A DNA stretch of 52,923 nt from a virus (Duplodnaviria; Caudoviricetes). The first letter of the stretch is position 1; each line of letters begins with the position of its first letter. A program made the position numbers and the translations under genes. Of this stretch, positions 2,309 to 45,088 are shown piece after piece. The stretch lies in IMG/VR virus record IMGVR_UViG_3300038456_000063, positions 1 to 52,923 of that record. The stretch is one strand, 5' to 3'. A model generated the notes under the pieces. The model searched no databases. It was given only the letters and a program-made list of their open reading frames with translations, and had not been told where the DNA came from.

Positions 2309-3054
2309 GGCAGTAGTTCCGCGAACTTGGAGGAACCAATGCGGGTGCAGCCCATGTCGAGGTACTGGCACGCATCGGCGTAGGTGTTGATGCCGCCGCT
2401 GGCCTTGACTTGGCACCGGCCTTGGAGGACATCGAGCATGATCTTCACCATGCCGGCGGTGGCCCCTTGTGGGCCAAAGCCGGTGGAAGTCTTCACAAAG
2501 TCCACGCCCAGATCGACACACAGGCGGCAGGCGTCGGCAATCTGGTCGGGCGTGTAATAGCACGTCTCCAGGATGGCCTTGACGGTCACACAGCGTTCGT
2601 GGGCGGAATGGATGATGGGAACCAACTCGTTCGCCACCGGAGCCGAGTCGCCGTCCAGGAACCGGCCGTAGTTGATTACCACGTCAAGTTCCGTCGCGCC
2701 GGCCTCCATCGCCAACATGGCTTCCATGACTTTGGCGGCCGGGCAGGCGTTGCCGTGCGGGAAACCAATCACGGCAGCTACCCTCTCCGTATAGAGAGTT
2801 GCAAAAGAAACGAGACTGGTTGTGACGCAGACGGATTTTATTGCGTAGCGTTCCACCAACTCGCAGGCCGCCCGCACGTCTTCCAGGGTGGCCGTGGGTT
2901 TCAGCACCGCCAAGTCCAGGGCGGCGGCGATCCGTTTCACGCCGCAGGCCCGTCCATTGATCTCGCGGGCAACTTCCCGCTTGATCTCGGCGGAACGGGC
3001 CATTGCATTGGCGTACATGACATCGGCAGAGGGGAGGATCAGCTTGTCGGACAC
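2305..3054 (-). CDS. deoC: Deoxyribose-phosphate aldolase
   Basis: VIGFPHG, ELDVVIN, VKAILET, FVKTSTGF (Schiff-base Lys), VKASGGI and RIGSS motifs. Start uncertain (GTG 3054 or ATG 3018). Confidence 0.92.
   Translation of the reverse strand: MSDKLILPSADVMYANAMARSAEIKREVAREINGRACGVKRIAAALDLAVLKPTATLEDVRAACELVERYAIKSVCVTTSLVSFATLYTERVAAVIGFPHGNACPAAKVMEAMLAMEAGATELDVVINYGRFLDGDSAPVANELVPIIHSAHERCVTVKAILETCYYTPDQIADACRLCVDLGVDFVKTSTGFGPQGATAGMVKIMLDVLQGRCQVKASGGINTYADACQYLDMGCTRIGSSKFAELLP
2793..2825 (-). promoter_or_regulatory. Bipartite phage promoter-like motif, copy 1 (inside deoC)
   Basis: Minus strand TCACAACCAG-N11-TTGCAACTCTCT. Confidence 0.65.
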
Positions 3055-3881
3055 AGTTGGTCTCTCATTAGTTGGCAGTATTCGGGGGAAATGTCGATGC
3101 CGATGGAGAGCCGGCCGTGGGCACGGGCGTAGTTCAGGGTCGTGCCGCTGCCGGCGAAGGGGTCCAGCACGGTCCCGCCGTAGCGGCAGGTTGCCAGGAT
3201 GGGGAGTTCCACCAGTTGCTCGGAAAAGGTCGCCCGGTGGCCCTTGCCGCCGTGCGAGGAGGGGACTTGCCAGGTATCGTAGGGCGGCATGACGCCGCCC
3301 TTCTGAGTGCGGCGGCCGACGGTCTTCTTGTCGAAGTAGTAAAACCGCTCGCGGACAAAGTGGAACATATACTCGTGCGACATGGCGCAGCGGTCCCGCA
3401 CTTGGTCCGGGGTGGGGTTGGCCTTGACCCACACGTTGTCGTTGCGGACGATCCAGCCCTCGCCCTGCATGGCGATGGCAAAGCGGTGGGGAAGTAGCAA
3501 TAGCTGCTTGCCACGGGTCCACAGGCCGGGACGCCGCTTGTCTTGCGGCCGGCAGCCGAAGCGGCGGGCGGACTGCTTGTTCTCGCCTCCTCGGGCCTGC
3601 CCCCGGCCGCTCCAATAGGTGTCGCCCAGGTTCACCCACAGCGAGCCCGTATCGGACAACACGGGTATCAAAGCACGGAAGACTCCGACCAACTTGTCGA
3701 TGTACTCCTGTGGGTCGGCCTCCAAGCCAAGCTGGCCTTTCACGCCGTAGTCACGCTGCCCGTAGAACGGCGGCGACGTGACGATGCAGCTTACCGTGTG
3801 GCCGTGGCTTCTCAGCCACTTGGCACCGGCGACGGCATCGGCGTTGAGGATCGTGGTGTAGAGGTCTTGATGGAAGATCAT
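3039..3881 (-). CDS. DNA methyltransferase, N6_N4_Mtase family (beta class, probably N4-cytosine)
   Basis: TSPPFY catalytic motif IV comes before the VLDPFAGSGTT SAM-binding motif. Confidence 0.9.
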   Translation of the reverse strand: MIFHQDLYTTILNADAVAGAKWLRSHGHTVSCIVTSPPFYGQRDYGVKGQLGLEADPQEYIDKLVGVFRALIPVLSDTGSLWVNLGDTYWSGRGQARGGENKQSARRFGCRPQDKRRPGLWTRGKQLLLLPHRFAIAMQGEGWIVRNDNVWVKANPTPDQVRDRCAMSHEYMFHFVRERFYYFDKKTVGRRTQKGGVMPPYDTWQVPSSHGGKGHRATFSEQLVELPILATCRYGGTVLDPFAGSGTTLNYARAHGRLSIGIDISPEYCQLMRDQLCPTS

Positions 3882-4327
3882 AGCCGCTCCAACTTCTCGA
3901 TCCGGGGCGTGACCTGGGAGTGTCCGAAACAGGGCCACCAGTCGTGGAGCGACTCGTGGACGAGGATCAGAGAGCCCGTGCCGACGGGGTGCTGAAGGGT
4001 TTCGTAGTCCAGCGTGACGCCGGGACAGAATGGGCTATTCATGCCCAGCGTCTTGTCGCCGGGGAACGAGGCCAGCGGCATGACCATCACGTCCCACGGG
4101 CCGATCTTGTGATAGCGGGCGATGCAGTAGTCCAAGACATTCTGCAAGTCAGGATCGTTGGTGCGGGTCTTCAAGACCTTCAAGTGGTCGATGGCCTTGT
4201 CCAGCCAGATTTGCTCGTAGGTGTGTTCACCCGTCGTCATGTAGTACAGGCCGCCGACAAAGGGAGCGGCGAGCATGAACATCGGGGCGACCATCACGAT
4301 CAAGAGCCAACGGCAGTACCGCTTCAT
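3878..4327 (-). CDS. Membrane-anchored protein with HExxH zincin-like motif
   Basis: N-terminal hydrophobic segment; LILVHESLHDW...GH. Confidence 0.55.
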   Translation of the reverse strand: MKRYCRWLLIVMVAPMFMLAAPFVGGLYYMTTGEHTYEQIWLDKAIDHLKVLKTRTNDPDLQNVLDYCIARYHKIGPWDVMVMPLASFPGDKTLGMNSPFCPGVTLDYETLQHPVGTGSLILVHESLHDWWPCFGHSQVTPRIEKLERL

Positions 4328-10156: not shown

Positions 10157-10897
10157 TCAGACTGCCACTTTGCGGCGACGAATCACCCACACTATCGCGG
10201 CGATCGCGCCGGCGACGGCAAGCAGGATGAAGGTCGAAGGCTCGGGCGTGACGACACACTGCTCGATAGAGACATTGCCCACGGTGCCGTAGGACGGCAG
10301 TTGCCCGTTGCTGTTGTAGTCGCTGCTCGTGCCCGTGGCCCCGGCGGCGAGGAAGTCGATACCGACTACTCCGGCGTTGGCAATCGTGTTCGCAAAACCG
10401 ATGCCGGTATTACCCACGGGCCACACGGTAAAGTTCGCCGGGTTCAGGGTGATTGAGAACGTCTCCCAGCCGTTCGTGCCGTTGCTAATGTCGATGCTCG
10501 ACGACGGATTGCTGAGGTAGTAGTTGTCGTTCCAATCGCTTGCGATAGTGAAGCGGGCCAGGGCCGGCTCGCCGCTAAGCACCAGACAGGGAGACGCCTT
10601 GAGGGTGACGGAGAGCGTGTCACCGACCTGGAAACTCTGCGAAGTCAACTGCTCCATGCCGTAGAGGCGCTGGCCGTCCGTACCCGTGCCCGTGACGATA
10701 CTGGCAATCGTGTTGCCGGACGTGGTGGACGTTATCAGGCCCGCATACGGGCCATCGCGGTTCTCGGGGCTGCCGTCGATGTAGCTGAGGTTGATGCCAG
10801 TGGGCGTAATGGTCTCGGTATTCGCGAGGCTGAGTTCGCTGGCCGAGGCCGTAATCGCCAAAGCAAACAGGAACAGGATGGGTAGCAGGTACTTCAT
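10157..10897 (-). CDS. PEP-CTERM sorting-domain surface protein
   Basis: Signal peptide MKYLLPILFLFALAITASA, an S/T/N-rich body, and C-terminal TPEPSTFILLAVAGAIAAIVWVIRRRK (PEP, TM helix, basic tail). Confidence 0.9.
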   Translation of the reverse strand: MKYLLPILFLFALAITASASELSLANTETITPTGINLSYIDGSPENRDGPYAGLITSTTSGNTIASIVTGTGTDGQRLYGMEQLTSQSFQVGDTLSVTLKASPCLVLSGEPALARFTIASDWNDNYYLSNPSSSIDISNGTNGWETFSITLNPANFTVWPVGNTGIGFANTIANAGVVGIDFLAAGATGTSSDYNSNGQLPSYGTVGNVSIEQCVVTPEPSTFILLAVAGAIAAIVWVIRRRKVAV

Positions 10898-10931
10898 TGG
10901 TCGTTCTTTCACTGGGGTTAGGACGCGGAGT

Positions 10932-12469: not shown

Positions 12470-12502
12470 AGAGAGTTGCAAAAACTTGCACACTGGTTTT
12501 CA
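12470..12502 (-). promoter_or_regulatory. Bipartite phage promoter-like motif, copy 2
   Basis: TGAAAACCAG-N11-TTGCAACTCTCT, intergenic, upstream of the ligase/bS21 genes. Confidence 0.75.
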
Positions 12503-13120
12503 AGGCTGCGCGGATTTTTGTCCGGCCACTCGAAACTCCCCTTGCCGGGCCAGCAGGCGGCCGAATCCTTCGACCAGATACATCGACGTGGAGCAACGAT
12601 GGAGACGGTTCCAGGGGCGGGGCACCAGCAGGGCTTGACCGCCATATCTGCGGAAGAGGCGGCAGTTCTTCTCGTTGTCGTCCACCAGCAGCGAACCGGA
12701 TTGGGCGAAGAACCATTTGCGGGGCGTAATCGCATAGCTGCGGTGCATCCACTCGGGGAAGTGCGCGTGAATCCAGTCCACCTTGCCGGCCGCACAGGCA
12801 GGGTCTTTGGTGGGGCTGGTGGCGATGATGATGTTCTCCCGGCCCACCAGCCGCTCGCACTGCTCCAAGAGCCAGGGGTATTGCGGCGACTCCGGGACGC
12901 CAGCCCAGTCCTGCCGGTTGAACCACGACCAAAAGGACGGCCGGGTGAAATACTCCCCGCCCAGCAGTTTGTTGGCAACCAGCGTCAGGTCCACGTTCCC
13001 GGTTATGGGGTATTCGCTGTAGTCCGTGGGGCTGATCTTGCAACCCACAAGACTCAGGAAGTGCATGGAAAGCGTATTGCATACGTCATCCAGGTCAAGA
13101 TAGATGCGACGTATCTTCAT
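12500..13120 (-). CDS. HAD-family 5'(3')-deoxyribonucleotidase
   Basis: YLDLDDV motif I, ATSP, GKVDWI and LLVDDN motif IV. Confidence 0.85.
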   Translation of the reverse strand: MKIRRIYLDLDDVCNTLSMHFLSLVGCKISPTDYSEYPITGNVDLTLVANKLLGGEYFTRPSFWSWFNRQDWAGVPESPQYPWLLEQCERLVGRENIIIATSPTKDPACAAGKVDWIHAHFPEWMHRSYAITPRKWFFAQSGSLLVDDNEKNCRLFRRYGGQALLVPRPWNRLHRCSTSMYLVEGFGRLLARQGEFRVAGQKSAQP

Positions 13121-13788
13121 CGCTTGGCCTTTCTCGTATCACGCAAGCCGGCCTTGGCCAGCACGCGACGATACAGGTTCTCTTTCAAGCGGTAGGTGGT
13201 GGCCAGCGACGTGCCGATAACGGCGGCGATCTCTTGCAGGTTGTAGCTGGCCTCACGCATATCGACGTAGGTTCGCTCTTGCTCGGTCTCGCAGCAGGAT
13301 TCAATCAGGTCGCGCATTTCCGCGAGCGTCTCGGCACCGTCGCACGCGCAGGTGTCAGGGACCGCGCCGGAGGGCGTCATGGTCCTGATCCGCTTGCCGT
13401 TGGCCGTGGCGTTGTACTGCGTCTTGTGCGGAATCCGAATCATGGATTCGTCGTCCGTGAATTGAATCAACTGGCACATGATGGAGACGCCGATATACTC
13501 GACCGGAGCAGCCACGCCGCTGCCGTCCTTGGCGATGCTGTTTACGGCGTTCACCAAGCCGACAAAGCCGGCACTGGTCAGGTCGTCGCGGAGATAGGTA
13601 TACTGCGGGAAGGAAAAGATATAGTCGTCCACCTTGGACACGACCAGCGGCATGTTGCCTTCGATCATCGACTTGCGGGCCTCGACATCGCCCAGGGCGA
13701 CCTTGGGCGCGAGTTCCAGGTTGTCTTCCACGTTCAAGGGTGGCGACATCTGCGAAACGAGTTCACTGTTGTACTTGCTCATGGTCAC
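13117..13788 (-). CDS. RNA polymerase sigma-70 family factor (phage-encoded)
   Basis: Region 2 ARKSMIEGNMPLVV...DDLTSAGFVGLVNAV, MIRIP, and region 4 HTH YNLQEIAAVIGTSLATTYRL. Confidence 0.85.
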   Translation of the reverse strand: MTMSKYNSELVSQMSPPLNVEDNLELAPKVALGDVEARKSMIEGNMPLVVSKVDDYIFSFPQYTYLRDDLTSAGFVGLVNAVNSIAKDGSGVAAPVEYIGVSIMCQLIQFTDDESMIRIPHKTQYNATANGKRIRTMTPSGAVPDTCACDGAETLAEMRDLIESCCETEQERTYVDMREASYNLQEIAAVIGTSLATTYRLKENLYRRVLAKAGLRDTRKAKR

Positions 13789-14264
13789 GCTTTCGGATGG
13801 AGGATTGCGTCGATGCGCCAGGCGCAGATCGGCTCGAAGTTGTAGATGTTGAAGTCGGCGCTGCTGTACTCGTAGCCGTCCGGGTCGTAGATGCAGCCAC
13901 GGTCGTAGGCGACCATGTGGCCGCAGCGGATGCCCATGCCCTCAATCACGCCTTGCGTCGTGTAGAGCGTGTCGTAGAAGCGGAGGTTGAGATCGCGCTG
14001 GCCCAGATGATGGCCGGCATAGGGGCGACCAATCACGTCCAACGACACCGGGAAGATTTCCACCGGCGTGGCGGCAAAGCCCCGCTTCAGGCAGCAGTCG
14101 ATCAACTCCTGCATGTGGAAGCCGCGACGTTGCTCAAGACCAAGCGGGAACACGCCGCCGTCGTGGCCGATCTCGGCGATCAGGTCCGCGACAGGCACAT
14201 CGAGCACCATCGCAAAGGACGTGATGGCACACTGCCATCGTTCGGGTTTCTTTTGTAAGCGCAT
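13785..14264 (-). CDS. Papain-like (C39-like) peptidase-fold protein
   Basis: Q.....WQCAITSFAMV (catalytic Cys), GHMVAY (His) and IYDP (Asp). Confidence 0.55.
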   Translation of the reverse strand: MRLQKKPERWQCAITSFAMVLDVPVADLIAEIGHDGGVFPLGLEQRRGFHMQELIDCCLKRGFAATPVEIFPVSLDVIGRPYAGHHLGQRDLNLRFYDTLYTTQGVIEGMGIRCGHMVAYDRGCIYDPDGYEYSSADFNIYNFEPICAWRIDAILHPKA

Positions 14265-14313
14265 AGAATCAGCCAGTTAGAGGTTCATCAGCGAGGGTTA
14301 AGAGAGCGGCGGG

Positions 14314-14727
14314 CTAGTCGAGTTGTGAGCGTTCAAGCTCTTCGCGGTCTAGCTCGTCGAGCAGTGCGTCGATGTCGGGAATCCGACCCCACGACTCTTT
14401 CCAGTAATCTTTCCAGTTGGCCTTCTTAAAGAGTTTTCCGTACTCTTCATCGGTGGCGGCGGTCAGTATCCAGATGCCGACACCCTTGGCGTCCCACAAG
14501 GGCCACTTCTGTTTCTGGGCCTTGGTGAAGCAGTATTTCTTCGGTTGCTTGCAGTCGATCCAGCGTGTGCCCCATTTCTCGTGGGCAATGAACAAGTCGG
14601 GAAAGCCGGTTTGATACAAGTTCCCGTGGGTATGTTCCACCATCCAGCCACGGGCCTTGAGGAATTTGATGAGCGCTTGCTGGATGTACCATTCCGGGCC
14701 GTGGGCGGGTTGGCGAATCTTCCTCAC
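14314..14727 (-). CDS. VRR-NUC / PD-(D/E)XK nuclease
   Basis: E..IQ...IKFL, GFPDLF, WIDCK and TKAQ. Confidence 0.75.
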   Translation of the reverse strand: MRKIRQPAHGPEWYIQQALIKFLKARGWMVEHTHGNLYQTGFPDLFIAHEKWGTRWIDCKQPKKYCFTKAQKQKWPLWDAKGVGIWILTAATDEEYGKLFKKANWKDYWKESWGRIPDIDALLDELDREELERSQLD

Positions 14728-18303: not shown

Positions 18304-19171
18304 CGTTTCCTCCACTAAGAGAGTTGCAATCGGCCGCTCTCTGGTTTTCAAGTTCGATGTCTTTTAGCAACTCCTTGTCGCTGACTTCGCCCATCGACCA
18401 CGCCAGGGCTCGCGTCGGCAGGCCGTTGACCCCAAAACCGAACATCTTGAGGATCATGGCGTTGATCTGTTCTTTGGTCCGCCTTGATTTGAAAGTGCGT
18501 TTACACGCATCGGGCAGTCCCGGCAGGCGTCCGCTCTTGCCACCCAATCGGCGGGCCTCGGCCGTCTTGTTGGCGATGAAGACCTGATCGTCCGGGGCCT
18601 CGCGGTGGAGGCGTTCGATGGTCACGGCCGACAAGAGGCCGGCGGCGGCCTGGGCCTGAATCTCGGGTGAGAGGGTCAGCAGGCGAAGACGGGCGGCGAC
18701 CCACTTGGTAGACCGGTTCAAGTCCTTGTGGCCCTGCCGGAGCGTGACGCCCTCGGGGTACAATCGCTGAAGGGCGATGGCCTCTTGCAGCATGTTGAGG
18801 TCTTCGCGCTCAAGGTTCTCGGTGAAGTTCAAGAGGCGGGCCTGATAATCGCTCAGGCCACGGCGGACCATCGCCGGCACGCGGGTCCACTTCAGATAGA
18901 ATTCGACGGCCCGGAAGCGGCGGTGGCCGGCGAGCAGGCGGTATTCGTAGCCCTCGGGCAGGCCGCCCTCAACCTCGGCGACGGGCTGGACCACGACGGG
19001 GAAGTCAAGGCCCTTTAGCTCGGCACCGTCCCCCTTCTGGCGAATGCTGTCGGCAAGTTCGGAGACCGATTCCAGCATGAATTGTCCCCGGCAGTTGAAG
19101 TCAGCATCGTAGTAGATGCTGCTCAACGGCAGGGCGAACACGTCATACTGGGGGAGTCTCTTTGCTGCCAC
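18167..19171 (-). CDS. ParB/Spo0J-like protein
   Basis: LADSIRQKG, PVVV, LLAGHRRFRA (GxRR CTP-binding motif), ENLEREDLN, and HTH RSTKWVAARLRLL. Confidence 0.88.
   Translation of the reverse strand: MAAKRLPQYDVFALPLSSIYYDADFNCRGQFMLESVSELADSIRQKGDGAELKGLDFPVVVQPVAEVEGGLPEGYEYRLLAGHRRFRAVEFYLKWTRVPAMVRRGLSDYQARLLNFTENLEREDLNMLQEAIALQRLYPEGVTLRQGHKDLNRSTKWVAARLRLLTLSPEIQAQAAAGLLSAVTIERLHREAPDDQVFIANKTAEARRLGGKSGRLPGLPDACKRTFKSRRTKEQINAMILKMFGFGVNGLPTRALAWSMGEVSDKELLKDIELENQRAADCNSLSGGNDADATNARRSPGGPEIPAGDRPDKAEKGHTHHRRDRQPALRDRRA
18318..18350 (-). promoter_or_regulatory. Bipartite phage promoter-like motif, copy 3
   Basis: TGAAAACCAG-N11-TTGCAACTCTCT-TAGTGGAGGAAACG-ATG. Confidence 0.75.
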
Positions 19172-30042: not shown

Positions 30043-30075
30043 AGAGAGTTGCAAAGCGTGAGAAACTGGTTGTGA
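30043..30075 (-). promoter_or_regulatory. Bipartite phage promoter-like motif, copy 4
   Basis: TCACAACCAG-N11-TTGCAACTCTCT, intergenic, upstream of the methylase/helicase genes. Confidence 0.75.
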
Positions 30076-31062: not shown

Positions 31063-31068
31063 CGTTGA

Positions 31069-31809: not shown

Positions 31810-31952
31810 GGTGCAAAACCTCAGAGTTGAAGATTGGAAGAGAAACTTAAAGACAAACGGCAAACAGGGATCAAGCAGGGCGGGTGGCCGGTGCGGGTGG
31901 CCGGTGCGGGTTACATGATTAGGTCTCCGTGGCAATAAAGTGTGCGGATGTT

Positions 31953-32840: not shown

Positions 32841-32862
32841 AGTGGGCTCCGAGATCAACAAC

Positions 32863-32959: not shown

Positions 32960-33030
32960 AAGTGCCAGTCTTTCCCGCGCCGGAAACGGCAAAGCGAGAG
33001 CGTGTAAACGCACCCTATCAAGGAAGCGAC

Positions 33031-35742
33031 ATGAGAGTCACCCAAGCCATCCAAGTCTTCCTCAATGCCCGCCAACTGCCGGCCAACGCCGATCTGGTTG
33101 CGCGCTGGTCGTCAGCGCACGAAACCCAGGTCAACGTCGCCGCCGGCAATGGTGAACCCGTGGAGGGCAAGCGGACGACCTACAGCGATGGCATCAACGA
33201 GTGGTGGAATATAAGGCTGCCCAAGAACGCCAACAGCGACCCGTCCTGGAACGACTACGAACTGAAGTTCCCCTTTGAAATGCACGCCGAGGGCATCGGC
33301 TGCACGGGCTGGGACTGGGCCGCGCAGCGCTCGCGCTGGGTGGCCTTCGACTTTGACAGTCTTACGACGCACGCCAAGGGCGTGGGCGTCACGGACGAGG
33401 AATTGGAGCGGGTCAAGCTGGCGGCCGAGGCCCTGCCCTACGTGGAGACCCGGTTGAGTACCAGCGGCAGCGGCATCCACCTTTACGTCTACTTCGACGC
33501 CCAGGGCGTGCCCACGGCCAACCACACCGAACATGCCGCCCTGGCCCGTTGCGTGCTAGGTATGATGTCAAGCGACACGGGCTTCGACTTTGCCAGCCAG
33601 ATCGACTGCTGCGGCGGTGTGATGTGGATTTGGCACCGCAAAATGACGGCCGAGAACCACGGTCTCTCGCTTGTCAAGCCGGCCACCAAGGAACTCTCCG
33701 TGGCCGATCTGCCCACCAACTGGCGTGACCATATTGAGGTCGTGACCAAGAAGCGGAGCAAGGTGCGTGTAAACGCGGTCGAGGACGACAAACTCGATTC
33801 CTTCGAGCGTTTGGCTTCCAGCCGCAAGATCATCCCGCTGGACGAGAGCCACAAGCTACAGATCGAGTCCCTGATGCGGACTAATTTCACGACCTTGTGG
33901 ATCGCCGACCACCATCTGTTGCAAACACACACCTGCGCCCTGGCCCGTCTGACGGAAGAGCAGGCCGGGGAGTTGGGGCTGGTTGGCATCTTCAAGACGA
34001 TCTCCCAGGGCAACAATCCGGGCTCGCCCAATTGCTTCCTCTTTCCCTTGCCCAACGGTGCCTGGAAAGTCTACCGCTTTTCCCAGGGCATCAACGAGGC
34101 CGACACTTGGAGCCAGGACGGCGAGGGGTGGACCACCTGCTACTTCAACCGCACGCCCGATCTGGCCGCCGCCTCCAAGGCCCACGGCGGCCTGGAAGAC
34201 CCCGACAAGGAAGGGCAATACGTATTCAACGAGGCGGCCCTGGCCATCAAAGCCGCCGAGGCCCTCGGCCAGAAGATCGAACTCATGGACGAAATGATGG
34301 ACCGCGAGGCCCGCCTGAAGACCAGCAAGTCGGGCCGGCTGGCCGTGGAGATCGAGAAGCAGAAGGACGACAACCCCAAGAAGATGCCCGGCTGGATCGA
34401 CAAGAAGGGCAAGTGGGTCCGCATCTTTGAAGTCAAGACCGAGAGCACGAAAACCGACGAACTCGGCTTTTCGGAACACGACCATTTGATGCGCGAGTTG
34501 GTGGCCGCCTCCAAGGAAAGCGCCGGGTGGGTGTTGTTCAAGGACGGCGAATGGATACGGGAGCCACCCGGCAACATCAAGATGCTCCTGCAAAGCAAGG
34601 GGCTCGGCAAGCCGGAGGCCGAGGCCATGATGGGCGAGGCCATCGGCAAGAGTTGGACACTGGTGAATCTACCTTTCAAAGAAGAATACCCTGGCGGGAG
34701 ACAGTGGAATATGGATGCAGCGCAGTTGAAGTACGAACCGGCCATCCTTGGCGACGATGAAGAGCCCACGCATCCCCACTGGGACAAGGTGCTCAATCAT
34801 ATCGGCCAAGACCTGAACGCCGGCCTCCGCGACTCGCCGTGGGCGCAAAAGGCCGACATCAAGACCGGCGCTCAATATCTTCTGGCGTGGGTCTCCTGCA
34901 TGATTAAGTACCCGTTCTCGCCGCTGCCTTACCTCTTCCTCTATGGGCCGGAAAACAGCGGCAAGTCGATCTTCCACGAGGCCATCGCCCTGCTAATGAC
35001 CAAGGGCTGCGTGCCCGCCGATCGGGCCTTGACCAGTACCGGCGACTTCAACGGCGAGTTGGCCAGTTGCATCCTGGCTATCGTCGAAGAAAAGGACATT
35101 TCCAAGGCCAAGGGGGCGTTGAACAAGATCAAGGAATGGGTCACGGCCCGAATGCTTTCCATCCGCAAAATGCGGTGCGACAGCTACTCGCAGCCGAACA
35201 CGACGCACTGGGTCCAGTGCGCCAACCGCCGCGAGAACTGCCCTGTCTTTCCCGGCGACACCCGCATCACCGTTATCCATGTGCCGGACCTTCTGCCGGA
35301 CCAGGAAATCCCCAAGGAAAAGCTGATCGAGAAGCTCACGGAAGAGGCCGCTCATTTCATGTACTCCCTGATGAACATGGAATTGCCGGAGCCCTCCGGC
35401 CGTTTGCGGCTGCCCATTGTAATGACCGACAGCAAGGCGCGGAGCGAGGAAGAGAACCGCAACTCGCTGGAAGAATTCGTCGCCGACTGCTGCTACGAGG
35501 CCCCTGGGGTGTTGACCCCCTTCAAGGACTTCTTCGACAAGTTCTACGAGTCGCTGACCGTGAACGAGAAGGGCGACTGGTCCAAGCAGCGGGTTATAAA
35601 GGGCATCCCCTCGCGCTTCCCCACGGGGACGCACAGCAACAACAAAAAGTGCATCGCTAATCTCTCTCTGGAAGAAGTCACCATCGCCCCCGGCACCAAA
35701 CCCCTTGTCTTCGCGGGCGACAAGTTCGTTGTAAAGGAATAG
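33031..35742 (+). CDS. AEP primase fused to SF3/D5-like helicase
   Basis: AFDFD and TSGSGIHLY (AEP motifs); YGPENSGKS Walker A, IVEE Walker B and CAN motif C. Confidence 0.85.
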   Translation: MRVTQAIQVFLNARQLPANADLVARWSSAHETQVNVAAGNGEPVEGKRTTYSDGINEWWNIRLPKNANSDPSWNDYELKFPFEMHAEGIGCTGWDWAAQRSRWVAFDFDSLTTHAKGVGVTDEELERVKLAAEALPYVETRLSTSGSGIHLYVYFDAQGVPTANHTEHAALARCVLGMMSSDTGFDFASQIDCCGGVMWIWHRKMTAENHGLSLVKPATKELSVADLPTNWRDHIEVVTKKRSKVRVNAVEDDKLDSFERLASSRKIIPLDESHKLQIESLMRTNFTTLWIADHHLLQTHTCALARLTEEQAGELGLVGIFKTISQGNNPGSPNCFLFPLPNGAWKVYRFSQGINEADTWSQDGEGWTTCYFNRTPDLAAASKAHGGLEDPDKEGQYVFNEAALAIKAAEALGQKIELMDEMMDREARLKTSKSGRLAVEIEKQKDDNPKKMPGWIDKKGKWVRIFEVKTESTKTDELGFSEHDHLMRELVAASKESAGWVLFKDGEWIREPPGNIKMLLQSKGLGKPEAEAMMGEAIGKSWTLVNLPFKEEYPGGRQWNMDAAQLKYEPAILGDDEEPTHPHWDKVLNHIGQDLNAGLRDSPWAQKADIKTGAQYLLAWVSCMIKYPFSPLPYLFLYGPENSGKSIFHEAIALLMTKGCVPADRALTSTGDFNGELASCILAIVEEKDISKAKGALNKIKEWVTARMLSIRKMRCDSYSQPNTTHWVQCANRRENCPVFPGDTRITVIHVPDLLPDQEIPKEKLIEKLTEEAAHFMYSLMNMELPEPSGRLRLPIVMTDSKARSEEENRNSLEEFVADCCYEAPGVLTPFKDFFDKFYESLTVNEKGDWSKQRVIKGIPSRFPTGTHSNNKKCIANLSLEEVTIAPGTKPLVFAGDKFVVKE

Positions 35743-35748
35743 GTCATC

Positions 35749-35928
35749 ATGTTGATCCTTGTCTACAAGATCACCGGCAAGTACACCCCCTCGATCTTTA
35801 CAGCCACATGCGTGGCGGAAGTTGAGTCGGACAAGATACCTCGCAATCAGGCCGCCTTTGCGGCCCGGCACGGCGGCGACTTCATCGACGTTGCCCCGGA
35901 GCCCGTGGCGGAAATGGCAGGTGTCTGA
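35749..35928 (+). CDS. Small hypothetical protein (59 aa, not in track)
   Basis: MLILVYKITGKYTPSIFTATCVAEVESDKIPRNQAAFAARHGGDFIDV...; TGATG overlap with the next gene. Confidence 0.55.
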   Translation: MLILVYKITGKYTPSIFTATCVAEVESDKIPRNQAAFAARHGGDFIDVAPEPVAEMAGV

Positions 35929-36167
35929 TGGCCCGCTTCATTCCTTGCGAGGGCTCGATGTACGAGGTCTGCACGCTGCTGGAACTCGGCGACCTGCAAA
36001 ACTTCGTCGGCGGCCTAGTGCGCTTCATCGCCATTGGTTTTGGCGACAACATCGTCTGCCATGAAGATGCCCTCAGCATCTATCCCGAAAACATCACTGC
36101 CTCCTCCCTCTATCACCAGCCCATCCACGGGCCGGCGGTCGTCCTGCAAATGAAGGAACTCCTATGA
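35928..36167 (+). CDS. DUF3846-like protein
   Basis: LGDLQNFVGG...IVCHED...IHGPAVV. Confidence 0.55.
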   Translation: MARFIPCEGSMYEVCTLLELGDLQNFVGGLVRFIAIGFGDNIVCHEDALSIYPENITASSLYHQPIHGPAVVLQMKELL

Positions 36168-36814
36168 TTGTTATTGGACTCGGCCACTACTCGCGCACGG
36201 GCAAAGATACCGTTGCCAATTACTTCCTCGAATGCCTCAGCGAGTACAAGGTGTCGATGCGGGCCATCAAACGCTCGCTGGCCTGGAAGCTGAAGCAGCA
36301 GTGCTACGAGTTGTATGCCTGGGCCGGCGTCATGCCGCCCGAGCACTACGAGACCAAGGAAGGCGAGAAGGACCGCGATGTCAAGCTGCCGGCCCTGGGC
36401 ATGACGGCGGTGGAACTTTGGGTGGCCTTCGGCACCAAGGCCATCCGCAACAACGTCCATGACCGGACGTGGCTGGACTACCTCTTGAAGACCGACCACC
36501 AGTGCGACGTTCTGCTCATTCCCGACATTCGCTTCCCCAATGAGGCGGACGCGATCAAGGAAATGGGCGGACTGGCCATCAAGGTCGTGCGGCCAGGCTA
36601 CGGCCCCCGCAAGACCGTGGCCGACCGAGCCCTCTTGGGCTACGACGGCTGGGATTACGTCATCGGGGCCGAGGGCACGATGGACAGCCTGCGGCACTGG
36701 GCCTCCCGCTTCGCCTGCCACGTTGCCGGCGGCAAGAGTATTCCCGTGCAGACGGCCGCCGAAAGGGCCGCCGCCCTGAAGGTCGAGAACATCGAACCTT
36801 GGGAACCGGCGTGA
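36164..36814 (+). CDS. Deoxynucleoside monophosphate kinase
   Basis: IGLGHYSRTGKDT, LAWKLK, FGTKAIR and DIRFPNE. Confidence 0.85.
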   Translation: MIVIGLGHYSRTGKDTVANYFLECLSEYKVSMRAIKRSLAWKLKQQCYELYAWAGVMPPEHYETKEGEKDRDVKLPALGMTAVELWVAFGTKAIRNNVHDRTWLDYLLKTDHQCDVLLIPDIRFPNEADAIKEMGGLAIKVVRPGYGPRKTVADRALLGYDGWDYVIGAEGTMDSLRHWASRFACHVAGGKSIPVQTAAERAAALKVENIEPWEPA

Positions 36815-36842
36815 CTATCATCACAATGGTGGTATACATGAT

Positions 36843-37025
36843 ATGCGAGTCACCAAGCGCAAGTGGAAACAAAAAGGCGGCCTCTGGAACACGGAGGCCG
36901 CCGACAAGATGGGGTCCGGGTACATTCCCTATCCCAAAGCCTGCGCCCGCATGGGCGATGGCCGACACGGCGGTAAGAAACTCAAGACCTTGCGAGCACA
37001 CCGACAAGACCGAAAACCGACATGA
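36843..37025 (+). CDS. Small basic hypothetical protein
   Basis: 60-aa ORF with ATGA overlap into the DnaQ-like gene. Confidence 0.4.
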   Translation: MRVTKRKWKQKGGLWNTEAADKMGSGYIPYPKACARMGDGRHGGKKLKTLRAHRQDRKPT

Positions 37026-37636
37026 AGACCTATTCCTCCCTCGTGACCTGCAACGGCAATCTGCTGGCCTCCATCGACTTGGAGACGACCGGCACGCAGC
37101 CGGGCTTCCACGAAATCATCCAGATTGCCATTGTGCCGCTCAATAGCGACATCCGCCCGATCGCCGACTTGCCGGTGTTCTACATGAACATCAAGCCCAA
37201 GTACCCCAAGCGGGCCTCCAAGGCGGCCACGCTCAAGCACGGCATCACGATTGAAGACTTGGTGCTGCACGCCCCGGAGTCGGAGAAGGTCGAGGATATG
37301 CTGGTGGAGTGGTTCGAGCGACTGGACCTTCCCTTCGGCAAGGTGCTCGTGCCGCTGGCCCACAACTGGGCCTTTGAGTCCAGCTTCCTCAAGGCATGGC
37401 TGGGCGTGGAAATGGTGGATAAGGTTTTCCACTCGCACGCCCGCGACGGAATGCTCACGGCCATCCACCTGAACGACCGGGCGGCCTTCGCCGGGGAGCC
37501 GGAGCCCTTCAACCGGGTCGGCCTCGGTTCGATCTGCAAGAAGTTCGGTATCGTCAACACGCACGCCCACGACGCGCTGGCCGACGCCTACGCCGGGGCT
37601 GAGGTCTACCGGGCAATGGCAATGGGGATGATCTAA
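37022..37636 (+). CDS. DEDDh 3'-5' exonuclease (DnaQ/RNase T-like)
   Basis: IDLETTG, EIIQIA, AHNWAFE and HDALADA. Confidence 0.9.
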   Translation: MKTYSSLVTCNGNLLASIDLETTGTQPGFHEIIQIAIVPLNSDIRPIADLPVFYMNIKPKYPKRASKAATLKHGITIEDLVLHAPESEKVEDMLVEWFERLDLPFGKVLVPLAHNWAFESSFLKAWLGVEMVDKVFHSHARDGMLTAIHLNDRAAFAGEPEPFNRVGLGSICKKFGIVNTHAHDALADAYAGAEVYRAMAMGMI

Positions 37637-38584
37637 ATGGGTACACCAACGACCGTCCTGACATTGGCGCAGTGGAATCAGATTCTTACCAATATCAACA
37701 ATTCTAGCGCCAGTTGCGGGAACACGCCGCTGCCGGCCGTGACCGCGCCGCACCGTTGGTCCACGACCGACATACTTAACGCCCAGGTCGCCTGTGCAAA
37801 CGGCGGCCCATATACCACGCCGGTCGGGCCGCCATACTTGTGGCAGCAGAAGATCATCGACGAACTCAATGCAGGAATAGCAAAAGGCTGTTGCACCTGC
37901 AATAAAGGCGTCGATGGCAAAGTGATTCCTTTCGGCCCGGTAATCAATGCCACCGTCCAGACTTCTTGTGGCGGCGCACCGTTTCCCACCAATACAACAG
38001 CGCTCGCCCCGTTAATTAACGGCTACCAAGCTGTTGGACCAGGAATCAACGGACGAGGCTGGAAGGTAATCAGCTATCTGCTCGTAAACGGCAAACCAGT
38101 CTACCCCTATTCGGGTGTCTGGGCTTCCGGCACGGTCGGTTGTAGCGGCGCAATTGTCTGCAATAGCGGCACGATCAATCAGGTTTGGGGCATCGCGGTC
38201 TATGGTGGTAACACGCCTTGCAACGATGCTAACTATCTGAACTCGATTGCAGCCGCGCAGGCCATGATCGCCGCAGGCGGTCAGCCCGTGTCAGCTTGGA
38301 TACCACCCCAGCCCCCTGGCTGGTATCAACTGCAATTCTGCATGGTCATCGGCATCGGCGGGGCAACCTGCCAGACCGGCGGATGTCCGCAAACGTGCGG
38401 TTGTAATTGCAGTAACTACGGCGTGTATCTTTACACGGGGTCTAACTCATTCGTAAGCTGCGCGTGTGGAAACTATGCACAGTGCAATCAAATAGCCTCA
38501 AGCTGGGCCAACAGTGGCGGCGGCTGGGCGTCGATATTCTCTTGTGGTGGTGGTGGCGGTGGCGGTGGAGGAGGCCGTAGTTAA
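37637..38584 (+). CDS. Cys/Gly/Asn-rich protein with poly-Gly C-terminus (possible virion fibre)
   Basis: Many Cys residues, almost no acidic residues, and visibly more A/T at third codon positions than its neighbours. Confidence 0.6.
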   Translation: MGTPTTVLTLAQWNQILTNINNSSASCGNTPLPAVTAPHRWSTTDILNAQVACANGGPYTTPVGPPYLWQQKIIDELNAGIAKGCCTCNKGVDGKVIPFGPVINATVQTSCGGAPFPTNTTALAPLINGYQAVGPGINGRGWKVISYLLVNGKPVYPYSGVWASGTVGCSGAIVCNSGTINQVWGIAVYGGNTPCNDANYLNSIAAAQAMIAAGGQPVSAWIPPQPPGWYQLQFCMVIGIGGATCQTGGCPQTCGCNCSNYGVYLYTGSNSFVSCACGNYAQCNQIASSWANSGGGWASIFSCGGGGGGGGGGRS

Positions 38585-38586
38585 TC

Positions 38587-39267
38587 ATGTCTGAAATCAA
38601 AATTAGCATTATTGGTCCCGAAGTATTCGCCCCCGGCGAAATACCTGCTGTAACCCCTGTTGCGGTGCCTAATGCGGAAGAGTTCAACCGGGCGGTCGGT
38701 TCAAAGGTTATTTTTGTCGTTGATTGCGTGTATCGTACTCGAATCAATCACAACGAAAACACCGGCGATCACAGTTTGCACTGTGGGAATTCTCTCTGCG
38801 AGCACAATGGCAAAGAGGTCACATATCGAATCTGCGCATTTTGCCCCTTGCGAAAGGATGGGGCGCAGACTGTGATACCCGTGCCGACGCCTACCGCGCC
38901 GCCCTCCGAGCCACGCCCCGATCTGGCGGCCATCGCGCTGACCCTGCCAGCACCGAACCCGGAGAAGGATGCCGAGCGGACCTTCCAGCGGCCGATCTTC
39001 CATGCGGACGGCAGGATTGAATATCCCAGGCGGGACAAGGACTGGGAGCCGCCGCAGAACATCAACGGATATGTCCGCGACCCGGACAACAAGTGGGTCT
39101 TTCACCCCTTGTGGGTTCCTTGTGCATTCCGCCATCAAACGGCCTTCCTCAAGGCCAACTGCGGCTGCATCGACGTGATCTGCCGCTGCAACTCGCCGCA
39201 ATCACCTATGTTCGCTCAACGTCTCGCCCACGAAACGTGCGCGAATTGCCCCGTAAGAAAGAAGTAA
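38587..39267 (+). CDS. Cys-rich hypothetical protein
   Basis: Two C-x-x-R...C...CxxCPxR modules. Confidence 0.65.
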   Translation: MSEIKISIIGPEVFAPGEIPAVTPVAVPNAEEFNRAVGSKVIFVVDCVYRTRINHNENTGDHSLHCGNSLCEHNGKEVTYRICAFCPLRKDGAQTVIPVPTPTAPPSEPRPDLAAIALTLPAPNPEKDAERTFQRPIFHADGRIEYPRRDKDWEPPQNINGYVRDPDNKWVFHPLWVPCAFRHQTAFLKANCGCIDVICRCNSPQSPMFAQRLAHETCANCPVRKK

Positions 39268-39290
39268 GAAAGAAGTAAGAAAGAAGTAAG
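39253..39290 (+). repeat. 11-bp tandem repeat (GTAAGAAAGAA x3.5) across a stop codon
   Basis: Units start at 39253, 39264, 39275 and 39286 (partial). Confidence 0.9.
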
Positions 39291-39298
39291 GAAAAACA

Positions 39299-39997
39299 AT
39301 GCAAGCAACCGTCAAGCCCTGCCTCAAGTGTCCCGAAGGTACGGCCGGTACACCCATCGCCCTGAACATGCAAGCGCCGGGGCGGGGCCACGACCAGCGC
39401 ATCAATTACGTCCTCAACGAGGGCGACGTGCGGGTGTTCCACTACACATTGGGTCAAGCCATCCCGGACGTGGAAATGAAATACGGACGCCCGGTGGTCC
39501 ACGAAGATGGATCGTTTGAGTTCCCGGTGCTGGAAGGGGTGGGCGATGCCGTGGGGGAGCCCGAAGACCTCTACGGCTACGAGCGGGACGGCGAGAATCG
39601 GCGGCTGTTCCGTCCGATGTGGCCAGATTGCTCCGAACGCGCCTTGGGCGTGTTCGTTCATGCGGGCGTCATGGCGGTGGCCGGCAGATGCAATCACTAC
39701 CTGGCAGAGCACTTCACCAGACCAGTCACGGTGGACCAGTGCCGGGAGTGCTCTGCCCGTCGCGCCAACCCTAAGCGCGAGCCAATGCCGAGAACGGCGA
39801 AAGAATTCATCGCCCGTGCCGAGGCCAGGGCGAGAGAGGATTTGAAGAAGAAGCTCGGCGACGATATTTTCGAGCGGGCCGAAGCGAACCTCAAGGCATG
39901 GCACTTTGGCAGGACCGTGAAGCCAGCGGTGCCTGTGGTGCCGACTACAAATAGAATTGCGAATTCGTCATCGCGTGGTGGTCCGCCTGCGTCGTGA
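39299..39997 (+). CDS. Cys-rich hypothetical protein, paralog of 38587-39267
   Basis: Shared RPxxHxDGxxExP...GYxRDxxNxxxFxPxWxxCxxR...C...CxxC. Confidence 0.65.
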   Translation: MQATVKPCLKCPEGTAGTPIALNMQAPGRGHDQRINYVLNEGDVRVFHYTLGQAIPDVEMKYGRPVVHEDGSFEFPVLEGVGDAVGEPEDLYGYERDGENRRLFRPMWPDCSERALGVFVHAGVMAVAGRCNHYLAEHFTRPVTVDQCRECSARRANPKREPMPRTAKEFIARAEARAREDLKKKLGDDIFERAEANLKAWHFGRTVKPAVPVVPTTNRIANSSSRGGPPAS

Positions 39998-44500: not shown

Positions 44501-45003
44501 CACATGGCGCTGGGCAGCCAGCTAAATTGTCCCTCCTCCGGCGAGAAGCCGACTTCCTGGTCTTCCAGGTGCGAGAGCACGGTAATCTTCACGGTGCGGT
44601 CGCGCTCGTTCCATGACACCGGGGTGTTGATCTTGCCGGCGAAAATCAGGAACATATCGCTCATGTCCAGCCCGTTGAACCACTGGTAGACCCGCACGTC
44701 CTGCTTGTGGAAGTCGTACTGGTCGTAGAGGCTCTTGATCGAGCCATCCGTGTCGTCCAGGGTGAGTTCGATCTGTGCGGAACTCCCGTTGCCCAACACG
44801 ATGTCCACTACGTCGTCCAGGGTGCCCAGGGCAACGATCTTGCCGGGGATGGCCGGCGGGCCGGGGATGTCCCGGTCGGCATAGCTCTGGGTGGCGGCGG
44901 CTCCGTTCGCATCAACATACCAGTCGATCTCGACAATGCAGATCGGCTCATTTCCGTAGCGATTGGCCAGCTTGGCAAGACCGTTGGCAGAGATATTACG
45001 CAT
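41536..45003 (-). CDS. Tail tip / baseplate hub-like protein
   Basis: N-terminal IELTLDDTDG...VRVYQWF...IFAGKI, GKAWPMIFG, LRDIAFQCRCALWI hub-like segment; lies downstream of the Dit-like genes. Confidence 0.7.
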   Translation of the reverse strand: MRNISANGLAKLANRYGNEPICIVEIDWYVDANGAAATQSYADRDIPGPPAIPGKIVALGTLDDVVDIVLGNGSSAQIELTLDDTDGSIKSLYDQYDFHKQDVRVYQWFNGLDMSDMFLIFAGKINTPVSWNERDRTVKITVLSHLEDQEVGFSPEEGQFSWLPSAMCGKAWPMIFGTTQDCPATQITRICQAVTITPVGIPSGSDAALAAPLYASGATKDVSTYQNMFVNNVKIDMLLSAAMCWADWEGQQGISSFNGYDSRTYDPANPCASKKLQSAVCMDEANKLMQKNLQQARKVAAKEECITLSRHDAADYCATNGVGDNPIQTLGGEDFPQNTPIWVNIGGGSFYGYFDGNLFYCSERVNLDDAVQLATDLYTFQEGQCESAKTGGVTHQAFDISQKVPCGSLCDWLSSGIDGLSQDTLWNGACGTANGCTPPCTMRSVGCLVSPAKSGVNTPGLGVGQLPPASTWLRIFWKEGGQTVKMETADAVSYVASIVPGTVLTVKAFKQYDGPHVLTTVPTDWYTVSTVNYGSITAVVITMERELSTYRYDDGTNQGWSNEIYVTFQSSVGPNTVDIIAYLIETYTDLSWDNDSFNYCWQKLQAFPSNFALLETKNIIEILRDIAFQCRCALWISDDVFYMKYLPEEPTLPNFNLAGVIATDPTTWHLDPTWAAVPGSVAAASGQPVEVEATPTTTEVITGWTTDMFGNQTPVYTEETSYSVAVNTPQNQVVGVITVSDIDSEQGVEVAYTPTENIVTKMKVTWRLSLAPDNPYPSDAEKHEQTMILRHNLAMYGLHEKSFNWFIYNQPDIILKCATFWMIRMSTTWKTLKFRTFLNKLNFETLDAILFDDGGKNYATSGPISAVVKKASYNSAEDCIDFELELPVKAGEMDYYPFYWPSKLPASVTWPPADEIASGAAGGGGIGIWASGNLPTGVVNGEISGQTVFVGGPNVVYGPRSDYGDPTPTDVGFEAQSVFPAGSIAVNPSGTRPYLTRGINFLNEEQWIDEPLPAEPIEIDLWQTRITDISNAQAFPGIGGSLGDFFSINPKGGLRLELAVAQVADNRTDDGPLNKALTTTGTDARFTDLFTVGPPPAGVDVSATNQTTLMMIDATGAGIYATTDDMPDGAEVDLKYDSTGQKIGIATAFLQAPSS

Positions 45004-45055
45004 ATTGAACCTCGGTAGTGAGGATGGACGGAGAATCCGCGCACCGTCTCCATCA

Positions 45056-45088
45056 AGAGAGTTGCAAAACGGACGTATCTGGTTTTGA
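45056..45088 (-). promoter_or_regulatory. Bipartite phage promoter-like motif, copy 5
   Basis: TCAAAACCAG-N11-TTGCAACTCTCT, intergenic, upstream of the tail-tip gene. Confidence 0.75.

Follow-up and report, generated by a model that had tools for sequence, protein, structure and literature searches.

Five copies of a bipartite motif in an uncultured phage: a probable promoter class of the phage's own divergent sigma factor

INTRODUCTION

Phage-encoded sigma factors that serve private promoters are a classic means of timing viral gene expression, and promoter classes of this kind are known for the middle and late factors of SPO1, gp36 of phiEco32, and gp55 of T4. Bacillus phage SPO1 is named in PMC13401047. 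In these systems, as we propose here, a sigma-70-family phage gene redirects the host core polymerase to a private consensus, which recurs where phage gene blocks begin and does not occur in the host. The DNA considered below, called the window, is the whole 52,923-nucleotide stretch of a viral record (IMGVR_UViG_3300038456_000063). Compared to SPO1, phiEco32, and T4, its phage differs in having a probable Planctomycetota host and, as judged from sequence, a three-part candidate promoter with a 12-nt invariant downstream block and a sigma gene that would lie inside the promoter class proposed for itself.

Extracytoplasmic function (ECF) sigma factors are a second point of comparison. Their promoters carry an AAC or AAAC core in the −35 element and GTC or CGTC in the −10 element, and the distance from AAC to the downstream box is generally shorter than 19 nt. 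ECF (group 4) sigma factors are used as orthogonal sigma/promoter sets (PMC7826278 and PMC6101570). The family described here shares with them a sigma2-linker-sigma4 architecture without region 3 and a specificity that varies from lineage to lineage. The upstream boxes of most of our lineages have an AAC or AAAC core, and GTC or CGTC occurs in the downstream boxes of the relatives L008, L019, L022, and G007. Unlike ECF factors, the present sigma is nearer to group 3 (SigF/G and RpoS) by sequence, and in the window AAC and the downstream-box ACT are 19 nt apart.

The best solved relative is the sporulation factor sigma F of Geobacillus/Bacillus, whose sites bear no resemblance to the present candidate promoter; Planctomycetota are not known to sporulate. 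The alignment to sigma F (1l0o chain C) covers regions 2.1 to 4.2, but ~45 residues equivalent to region 3 are missing from the phage protein. Among the papers listed by full-text searches, none dealt with this phage family, its sigma factor, or its promoters.

RESULTS

The phage and its relatives

The phage is uncultured, and the window represents ~51% of its genome. When 20 kb of the window was compared to deposited phages by megablast, nothing matched. Its relatives are proviruses within Planctomycetota metagenome-assembled genomes (MAGs); the host group is probably Planctomycetota, and the host itself is probably a Pirellulales-type planctomycete. A single-protein query found no relatives among viral contigs, and these were recovered once an alignment was used as the query. 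Because all relatives were retrieved via the sigma factor or its neighbor gene, co-occurrence of sigma and motif is partly by construction. As a control, we looked for a relative without the sigma among the DNA-polymerase relatives and found none. Two relatives are used repeatedly below: G001 (114 kb, CheckV 100%, roughly complete) and G008, a 9.3-Mb Pirellulales MAG with ~135 kb of prophage.

Five exact copies on one strand

A previous reading of the sequence alone had described five minus-strand (coding-strand) copies of an invariant AACCAG box and 12-mer, exactly 11 nt apart and preceded by TSAM. Searching the window for TTGCAACTCTCT at up to 1 mismatch, we found five sites, each an exact match on the minus strand, starting at 2793, 12470, 18318, 30043, and 45056. 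The expected count was 0.14, and none of 100 shuffles reached five. The full pattern AACCAG-N11-TTGCAACTCTCT at up to 3 mismatches returned the same five sites only (expected, 0.03) and nothing on the plus strand of the window, and a position weight matrix scan of both strands revealed no weaker sixth copy. The spacer was exactly 11 nt in 5/5 copies. The 4 nt ahead of AACCAG (TCAC, TGAA, TGAA, TCAC, and TCAA) all fit TSAM, so the description held in each of these respects. The copies and the A-rich tracts beside them are as follows.

2793..2825, minus strand: copy 1, TCACAACCAG-N11-TTGCAACTCTCT, within deoC coding sequence
2835..2842, minus strand: A-rich tract AATAAAAT, ~10 nt upstream of copy 1 (approximate, by eye)
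12470..12502, minus strand: copy 2; DNA ligase start at 12322, 148 nt downstream
18318..18350, minus strand: copy 3, within the 3' portion of a ParB-like open reading frame (ORF), with syntenic copies in relatives
30043..30075, minus strand: copy 4, in the interval that separates 30081-30602 from the DNA methylase/helicase genes
45056..45088, minus strand: copy 5, in the gap ahead of a 1155-aa tail-like gene
~12514-12519, 18362-18366, 30087-30090, and 45092-45105: A-rich tracts of copies 2 to 5 (approximate, by eye)

In the common layout, an A-tract precedes an upstream box, which a fixed spacer separates from the 12-nt box; GTGG comes next. Across 41 aligned sites, three columns ~45 nt upstream of where the 12-nt box ends had an A/T fraction of at least 0.8.

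All five copies (5/5) lie upstream of genes and point in the same direction as them. Copy 1 occupies about codons 272 to 283 of the open frame 2305-3639, a member of the DeoC family (Pfam DeoC, E 2.7e-16). GC content around the motif is 0.47 against 0.61 across deoC, which bears out the earlier remark that this copy sits in an AT-rich stretch of coding sequence. The next separate gene begins at ~2563, and G001 and G008 also have a copy inside deoC. The opening TGA of copy 2 is the stop codon of an NT5C-like gene (12500-13120). Copy 3 is followed by GGAGG, 5 nt, and the ATG at 18303 of a 121-aa ORF, beyond which come the DNA polymerase and then the sigma gene. The methylase start (TTG, 29976) is 67 nt downstream of copy 4, and the ATG of the 1155-aa gene (45003) is 53 nt downstream of copy 5.

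The RTG after the motif and RNA contigs

The sequence-only reading had also seen an RTG 2 nt past the motif at four sites, with the implication that genes start there. The triplet is real: GTG follows three copies and ATG one, while the fifth has ACG. The idea that it opens a gene or a leaderless message was rejected at 3/4 sites (copies 2, 4, and 5). The ORFs that the RTG would open at these copies are 66, 54, and 81 aa long, have a non-coding GC3 of 0.43 to 0.64 compared to ~0.8, and overlap real genes out of frame. The GTG of copy 3 is in frame, yet GGAGG-N5-ATG comes after it. For the four RTG-bearing copies, the true downstream gene starts are found 15 to 148 nt beyond the motif, and the orthologous ligase site of G001 has no RTG.

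One metatranscriptome (run X20) gave contigs of depth 2 to 5, which cannot show starts and may include DNA carry-over. One of these contigs ends at 12460, 5 to 7 nt past the GTG of copy 2, a weak hint of a start, and another (29875-30093) spans copy 4. RNA cover elsewhere in the window was too thin for use.

Phage specificity, direction, and conservation

The motif is phage specific and directional and is not a host signal. In G008, 13/14 copies at up to 1 mismatch lie inside the prophage and 1/14 outside it; the sequence-only reading had named an equal frequency in host chromosomes as counting against its proposal. A reversed-pattern control in G008 gave 4 matches at up to 2 mismatches. G001 has 11 copies, 9 on the minus and 2 on the plus strand, and the two plus-strand copies head plus-strand gene blocks. 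Downstream of each of the 11, within 19 to 158 nt, comes an ORF on the same strand whose GC3 is of the coding type. No copy occurs in the late structural block of G001 (~64 to 95 kb). Three more copies from the window phage were found outside the window on near-identical metagenome contigs; metagenome matches outside this phage were mostly opposite-strand ABC-ATPase coding sequence and scattered singles.

Other relatives have private versions of the motif with the same architecture (6 copies in G006 and 5 in G007) in the same syntenic places, and the box register is common to G001, G006, G007, and G008. The boxes are constant inside one genome, and the spacer sequence varies between orthologous sites. 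Exact k-mer and dyad discovery in 28 relatives' loci yielded clear families only in L007, L009, and L011; synteny-anchored comparison contributed private pairs from eight further relatives (L008, L019, L020, L022, L025, L030, L032, and L034). In distant DNA-polymerase relatives, scores were no higher than the 22 to 25 out of 36 of wrong-strand and coding controls.

A divergent two-domain sigma factor

The proposed reader of the motif is the following gene.

13117..13788, minus strand: sigma-70-family protein, 223 aa, probable ATG at 13782; candidate motif reader

PHROG 351 ("RNA polymerase sigma factor") matched this protein with an E value of 2.3e-10. The NCBIfam models for SigF/G, RpoS, and sigma70-ECF gave E values of 1e-6 to 1e-7, all far under cut-off (e.g., 30.9 versus 311 bits and, for sigma70-ECF, 27.2 versus 42.9), and the Pfam sigma models did not match the window protein. 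Even in its family, Pfam sigma models reach only 4 to 5 of 18 members and do so weakly (Sigma70_r4 or r4_2, E down to 1e-4), with Sigma70_ECF matching 2/18. The scores under curated cut-offs therefore point to a divergent member that Pfam and NCBIfam models do not capture.

A family profile searched against the PDB aligned over its full length with SigF (1l0o_C, E 1.1e-16) and, from region 2.1 onward, with SigA, RpoS, and RpoD structures (E 1e-8 to 1e-11). Region 2 (2.1 to 2.4) is recognizable by sequence, the single sequence matching RpoS region 2 at E 1e-3, and the most conserved family block reads GNMPLVVSKV...LRDDLTSAGFxGL. The SigF alignment spans region 4, where the AlphaFold2 (AF2) model places four helices (152-212) consistent with a helix-turn-helix (HTH). 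That model (pLDDT 80.2) has helix groups at 20-113 and 152-212 and predicts sigma2, a low-confidence linker, and sigma4, without a region 3 domain. All 50 Foldseek matches listed from the PDB were sigma factors, the best being sigma32 (E 7e-5, probability 1.00); the low global TM-score (0.41) reflects a different placement of the two domains. By profile and predicted fold, the protein is a genuine, divergent two-domain member of the sigma-70 family, as had been proposed.

The sigma is a core gene of the clade. We surveyed 16 loci of DNA-polymerase relatives, 2 of which were too short, and the sigma gene lay downstream of the DNA polymerase in all 14 informative ones. No anti-sigma gene was recognized adjoining it. 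Among 50,697 deposited phage records there was no close sequence relative, and the only matches were 3 gut-metagenome records at 24 to 36% identity. The profile search collected 180 clusters at 50% identity (E ≤1e-30).

DISCUSSION

A candidate promoter class and its reader

We propose, with a probability of roughly 0.6, that the five copies are a phage-specific promoter class at which the host core polymerase is directed by the phage sigma factor at 13117-13788. Each promoter would consist of an A-rich tract, a TSAMAACCAG box, 11 nt, and TTGCAACTCTCT, with transcription probably starting in the GTGG that begins 2 nt past the 12-nt box. Such a start would put the A-tract at about −50, the upstream box at about −33 to −27, and the 12-nt box at about −16 to −4. 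This geometry would correspond to the UP element, −35 element, and extended −10 element of a bacterial multi-subunit holoenzyme. Two elements at a fixed spacing are indeed present, with the hexamers inside the boxes only putatively assigned. The data show the motif with its statistics, phage specificity, orientation, and conservation pattern, as well as the predicted sigma fold; we infer where transcription starts, which parts are the −35 and −10 elements, that the sigma binds host core, and that it reads the motif. The promoters would drive replication and nucleotide-metabolism modules (ligase, polymerase, methylase/helicase, and the genes after deoC) as well as one tail gene. With the sigma gene itself downstream of copy 3, the circuit would be self-reinforcing once early transcription supplies some sigma. 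The sigma gene thus sits behind one of its own putative promoters, and we identified no early promoter from which the loop could begin.

The promoter part of the sequence-only reading has therefore gained from the phage specificity, direction, and synteny of the motif; its assignment to the sigma is by association, and the covariation of sigma residues with box sequence is mixed. The window has nearly the same 12-nt box as L009 and a different upstream box, yet their region-2.4-like segments are identical at only 4/21 positions. The window and L008 share AAAACCAG, and their sigma4 HTH is identical at 16/33 positions, versus 18/33 for the window and L009. In favor of the link, L019 and L022 have the downstream box in common along with a near-identical region-2.4-like segment, and they differ in both the upstream box and the sigma4 helix. 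As for the boxes of the window itself, its upstream box is shared with L008 and its downstream box nearly so with L009.

Other readings of the motif

In one alternative, which we judge unlikely, the same promoters are read by the host holoenzyme with a housekeeping sigma factor or one of the many alternative ones of planctomycetes, possibly together with another phage activator at the upstream box, and the phage sigma serves a different class, such as late genes. The motif is nearly absent from a host genome outside the prophage, and it varies sharply between phages while staying invariant within each, which indicates a phage-encoded, co-evolving reader. The A-tract, on the other hand, would suit any bacterial holoenzyme, the sigma4 helix does not covary consistently with the upstream box, and a position downstream of a copy is awkward for a factor needed there. 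The copy-less late block of G001 also needs some other signal, and the sigma might therefore serve another, unrecognized promoter class. As for an activator, no other co-conserved transcription factor was recognized; two ParB-like proteins are present, but ParB family proteins are expected to bind palindromes, and the motif is none. Also against this alternative, the coding strand of 13101-33100 has no site matching the sigma-70 consensus, in agreement with the earlier statement that TTGACA/TATAAT is not matched, although a TG three bases ahead of AACTCT recalls the extended −10 element. The missing sigma-54 −24 box was likewise borne out: the motif contains TTGCA, but none of the five copies has GG 10 nt before the GC of TTGC.

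We regard it as quite improbable that the motif is instead a non-promoter cis element aligned with transcription, acting in RNA processing, translation control, antitermination, replication, or recombination. Two copies do lie in coding sequence, one within deoC and one where the ParB-like ORF ends, an RNA contig crosses copy 4, and CTCTCT, read from the sequence, is complementary to the GGAG 3' of it and could mask a ribosome-binding site in read-through RNA. However, a variable 11-nt spacer between invariant boxes, an A-tract, and a distance of 15 to 160 nt to gene starts are promoter features, the two boxes are by eye not complementary to each other, and a dispersal of ~1 copy per 10 kb at block heads is unlike the clustered iterons of an origin.

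A promoter of an unrecognized phage-encoded RNA polymerase, single-subunit or non-canonical, is very improbable: the long invariant block ending before a G-rich start is like single-subunit polymerase promoters, the L009/G006 version looks much like the T7 class III consensus, and the window holds only part of the genome, but the bipartite layout, variable spacer, and A-tract better suit a holoenzyme. A search for T7-like RNA polymerase (PF00940) in 5 relatives' records rated 100% complete gave no candidate, and control genomes likewise gave none, so that its sensitivity is unproven. None of the 29 G001 ORFs of at least 300 aa matched a PHROG family named RNA polymerase; 27 fell in other PHROG families (several of unknown function) and 2 had no match (333 and 1059 aa). 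For the 1155-aa tail-side ORF, the nearest Atlas clusters are partly Phage-tail_3 (20 to 42% of members), which is a lead only, and PDB sequences gave no match.

Significance

The principle of phage sigma factors with private promoters is known. What is new is a sigma family that Pfam misses and that deposited phage genomes lack, and its setting in uncultured phages of ~100 to 136 kb integrating in Planctomycetota, a phylum in which transcription signals and phages have received little study. A third new point is the comparative pattern, which suggests many lineage-private promoter specificities on one small scaffold. If the promoter class led by the phage sigma is confirmed, it would offer a rule for annotating transcription units in these phages, as well as candidate parts for orthogonal expression that might be used in planctomycetes. 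More tentatively, the phage may belong to a large uncultured family of Planctomycetota phages and prophages in which each lineage pairs a minimal two-domain sigma with a private, highly stringent three-part promoter whose boxes are exchanged independently between lineages (L019 and L022, for instance, have just the downstream box in common), forming a natural library of orthogonal pairs. If that were true, the family would offer self-reinforcing orthogonal pairs in a phylum with few genetic tools.

A bipartite motif recurs five times on the minus strand

The sequence-only reading had described a five-copy bipartite motif on the minus strand and proposed it as a dedicated promoter class of the phage's own sigma factor. 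The motif itself was confirmed by pattern search, shuffles, and a PWM scan. Its downstream 12-nt box, TTGCAACTCTCT, occurs in five exact copies in the 52,923-base window, exclusively on the minus strand (2793, 12470, 18318, 30043, and 45056); dinucleotide-preserving shuffles gave a mean of 0.14 copies, and none of 100 got to five. Searching for AACCAG-N11-TTGCAACTCTCT with up to three mismatches returned the same five sites and zero plus-strand matches. The four bases 5' of AACCAG fit TSAM, an RTG (GTG or ATG) lies two bases 3' of the motif in four of the five copies, and no further, weaker copy emerged from the PWM scan. The copies are placed as follows.

2793-2825, minus strand, copy 1: inside deoC, about 40 codons in
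12470-12502, minus strand, copy 2: 148 nt 5' of the ligase start
18318-18350, minus strand, copy 3: in the end of a ParB-like ORF, then GGAGG, five bases, and ATG
30043-30075, minus strand, copy 4: in the gap 5' of methylase and helicase genes
45056-45088, minus strand, copy 5: in a 97-nt gap 5' of a 1155-aa gene whose closest Atlas clusters carry Phage-tail_3 in part

The RTG was considered as a start codon for copies 2, 4, and 5 and was rejected. The short ORFs it would open are noncoding in codon-position composition and lie out of frame over real genes; thus, the RTG more likely belongs to the signal itself. At copy 2, the TGA at 12500-12502 is both the opening of the motif (TGAAAACCAG) and the stop codon of the NT5C-like gene, and in the relative genome G001 the TAA ending a ParB-like ORF overlaps the motif's end. 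G+C at copy 1 is 0.47 versus 0.61 for the deoC gene, and within the deoC frame this copy encodes VTTSLVSFATLY in the window. A deoC-internal motif sits at the same place in G001 (24465-24494) and in G008, a Pirellulales MAG (contig 9, 4278 and 5014), where the presence of two copies 736 nt apart suggests a local duplication.

Genome context and probable host

The window, a whole IMG/VR virus record with a G+C of 60.5%, has a rated completeness of about 51%. The minus strand carries nearly all genes of 1-32,867 and of the stretch from 39,945 onwards; a plus-strand block occupies 32,962-39,997. Pfam and PHROGs named replication and nucleotide genes (DNA ligase, family A DNA polymerase, helicase, primase, two DNA methylases, RNA ligase, an NT5C-like nucleotidase, and DeoC), two ParB-like proteins, and tail and tail-fibre genes at the right end.

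The phage is present in peat, bog, and wetland metagenomes from 17 studies. Relatives of the sigma-like protein were found in Planctomycetota MAG contigs (Pirellulales, Thermoguttaceae, and Planctomycetaceae), some of 0.5 to 1 Mb, and one 2-kb contig with such a relative is labelled Granulicella. In IMG/VR, several related records count as proviruses, with lengths of 100 to 136 kb. The ORF at 10157-10912 has a C-terminal PEP-CTERM sorting motif (Pfam E value of 3e-4, just above cut-off), which fits an exosortase-bearing host. At about 19700-21000, each of four runs showed a 3- to 10-fold rise in public-contig depth, along with numerous loose ends and back-joints, and G+C at codon position 2 of the ORF at 20694-21056 is very low (0.24). 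This region looks like a low-complexity, possibly acidic repeat common to other organisms.

The candidate reader is a divergent sigma factor

The 223-aa product of 13117-13788 matched no Pfam sigma model. It matched PHROG 351, "RNA polymerase sigma factor" (E value of 2.3e-10), and several NCBIfam sigma models at E values of 1e-6 to 1e-7, all below cut-offs. Against solved sigma factors, an 18-member family profile matched SigF best (E value of 1.1e-16, whole length), followed by SigA, SigK, RpoS, and RpoD. The AlphaFold model (pLDDT of 80) has a helical domain at residues 20-113 and a four-helix domain at 152-212, joined through a linker modelled at a pLDDT below 50 (residues 140-151), with the region-3 domain absent. 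All 50 matches listed by Foldseek were sigma factors. Evidence other than Pfam is consistent throughout, and the assignment to the sigma-70 family stands: by profile and fold, this protein is a divergent member outside the curated family models.

The family comprises 69 word-index relatives and 180 clusters at 50% identity (E values up to 1e-30). A search of 50,697 deposited phage records gave none closely related to it. The sigma gene lies just 3' of the DNA polymerase in all 14 relatives' loci long enough to tell. In the relative L033, positions 12600-13400 hold at least three tandem units of about 300 nt, about 2 kb 3' of the sigma gene, each with two hairpin-forming inverted repeats.

The motif belongs to the phage

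G008 (9.3 Mb) carries a prophage of about 135 kb, occupying the last part of contig 5 and the first part of contig 9, with a sigma 65% identical to that of the window. At one mismatch or fewer, 13 of 14 motif copies in this MAG fall in the prophage. The reversed-pattern control gave 4 matches at up to two mismatches. On contig 9, a near-exact copy at 121687, about 100 kb past that contig's prophage part, closely resembles the copy at 20924 and may mark a second related element or remnant.

A metagenome collection scan returned 51 loci that match the motif exactly. Thirteen were the window's own five sites (99.5 to 99.9% identity), and five were three more sites beyond the window in the same or a near-identical phage. 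About 21 lay on the opposite strand in an ABC-ATPase signature region (e.g., L078, L080, L082, and L092). The motif's reverse complement is one codon choice for this signature (…QRVAIARALV…); these matches are a coding coincidence and a trap for pattern searches. About a dozen were scattered single matches, roughly the number expected for an 18-base pattern in such a collection.

Relatives keep the architecture

In G001 (113,838 bases, CheckV 100%), whose sigma is 64% identical, AAAACCAG-N10-TTTGCAACTCTT matches 11 sites when three mismatches are allowed, nine on the minus strand and two, in plus-strand gene blocks, on the plus strand. A same-strand ORF of coding-type composition begins 19 to 158 nt 3' of every copy (11/11). 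In more distant relatives the architecture persists while the sequence differs: GCGCGCASAA...CGTTTTACGACTCTCT recurs six times in G006, and ACTCCAAA-N12-CGGCAGTCTATC five times in G007. Comparison anchored by synteny, 5' of the polymerase operon and 3' of the sigma and nucleotidase genes, gave lineage-private pairs in L008, L019, L020, L022, L025, L030, L032, and L034. Boxes are invariant inside one genome; spacers differ among orthologous sites of different genomes. About 45 nt 5' of where the 12-nt box ends, an A/T-rich tract reaches an A/T fraction of at least 0.8 over 41 aligned sites, many of them orthologous and so not independent. For the most distant polymerase relatives, the motif comparison gave no signal above its controls.

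Which factor reads the motif

We believe that the motif is a promoter read by the phage sigma, with a probability of about 0.6. It is phage-specific, co-directional with genes, and accompanied by a genuine sigma, but the covariation of sigma residues with boxes is mixed: a modular reading accommodates L019 and L022 but not the window-L009 and window-L008 pairs. Finding sigma and motif together is in part a product of how the relatives were chosen, and there is no relative lacking the sigma to serve as a control. The G001 structural block has no motif copy, so the sigma could serve a different, unrecognized class. A promoter read by another factor, which the mixed covariation would allow and the near absence of the motif from G008 outside its prophage speaks against, is distinctly less probable. 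A consensus scan of the coding strand of 13101-33100 found no sigma-70-type site, and terminator-like sites were at chance level; this does not weigh much for or against the promoter reading.

That the motif is a non-promoter element is unlikely given the variable spacer between invariant boxes, the A-tract, and the placement 5' of gene starts. As for the transcription start, one low-depth metatranscriptome contig ends at 12460, 5 to 7 nt past the copy 2 GTG, and another (29875-30093) crosses copy 4; a start cannot be read from such contigs, which may also reflect carried-over DNA. Recognition by an unrecognized phage polymerase is very improbable, since five roughly complete relatives yielded no T7-like RNA polymerase (the search's control genomes likewise gave none) and none of 29 G001 ORFs of at least 300 aa matched a PHROG family named RNA polymerase.

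A proposed phage circuit

With transcription placed to start in the GTGG after the motif, the 12-nt box would lie at about −16 to −4, AACCAG at about −33 to −27, and the A-tract near −50. TG-C-AACTCT could then represent an extended −10, placing A at −11 and T at −7 in this inferred register. The register does not fit L008 (CTCGTCTCTCTT). The boxes of L008, L019, L022, and G007 have GTC or CGTC cores, which recall ECF −10 elements, and the AAC cores of upstream boxes recall ECF −35 elements.

SPO1, phiEco32, and T4 have known phage sigma and promoter pairs. The window's proposed system would work like these and like orthogonal ECF sigma/promoter sets. A full-text search, within the literature it reached, found no paper on this phage family; the principle is already known from phage sigma/promoter pairs.

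The divergent junction of the minus and plus blocks (32863-32959) holds a 43-nt inverted repeat, whose arms are 88% complementary and separated by 11 nt. In the direction of its own gene, each arm reads TTTYTGAAAAAAA...CGTTTTTACCATCTCCTRTAGGTGTT, and the 22-nt core has exactly two copies in the window, with 0 expected. The repeat may represent a second, early class of promoter or operator. The first sigma would be supplied by read-through from another promoter, for which this repeat is a candidate region. The phage sigma would then direct host core polymerase to the motif and so to the replication module and one tail gene; as copy 3 lies 5' of the sigma gene, such a circuit would reinforce itself.
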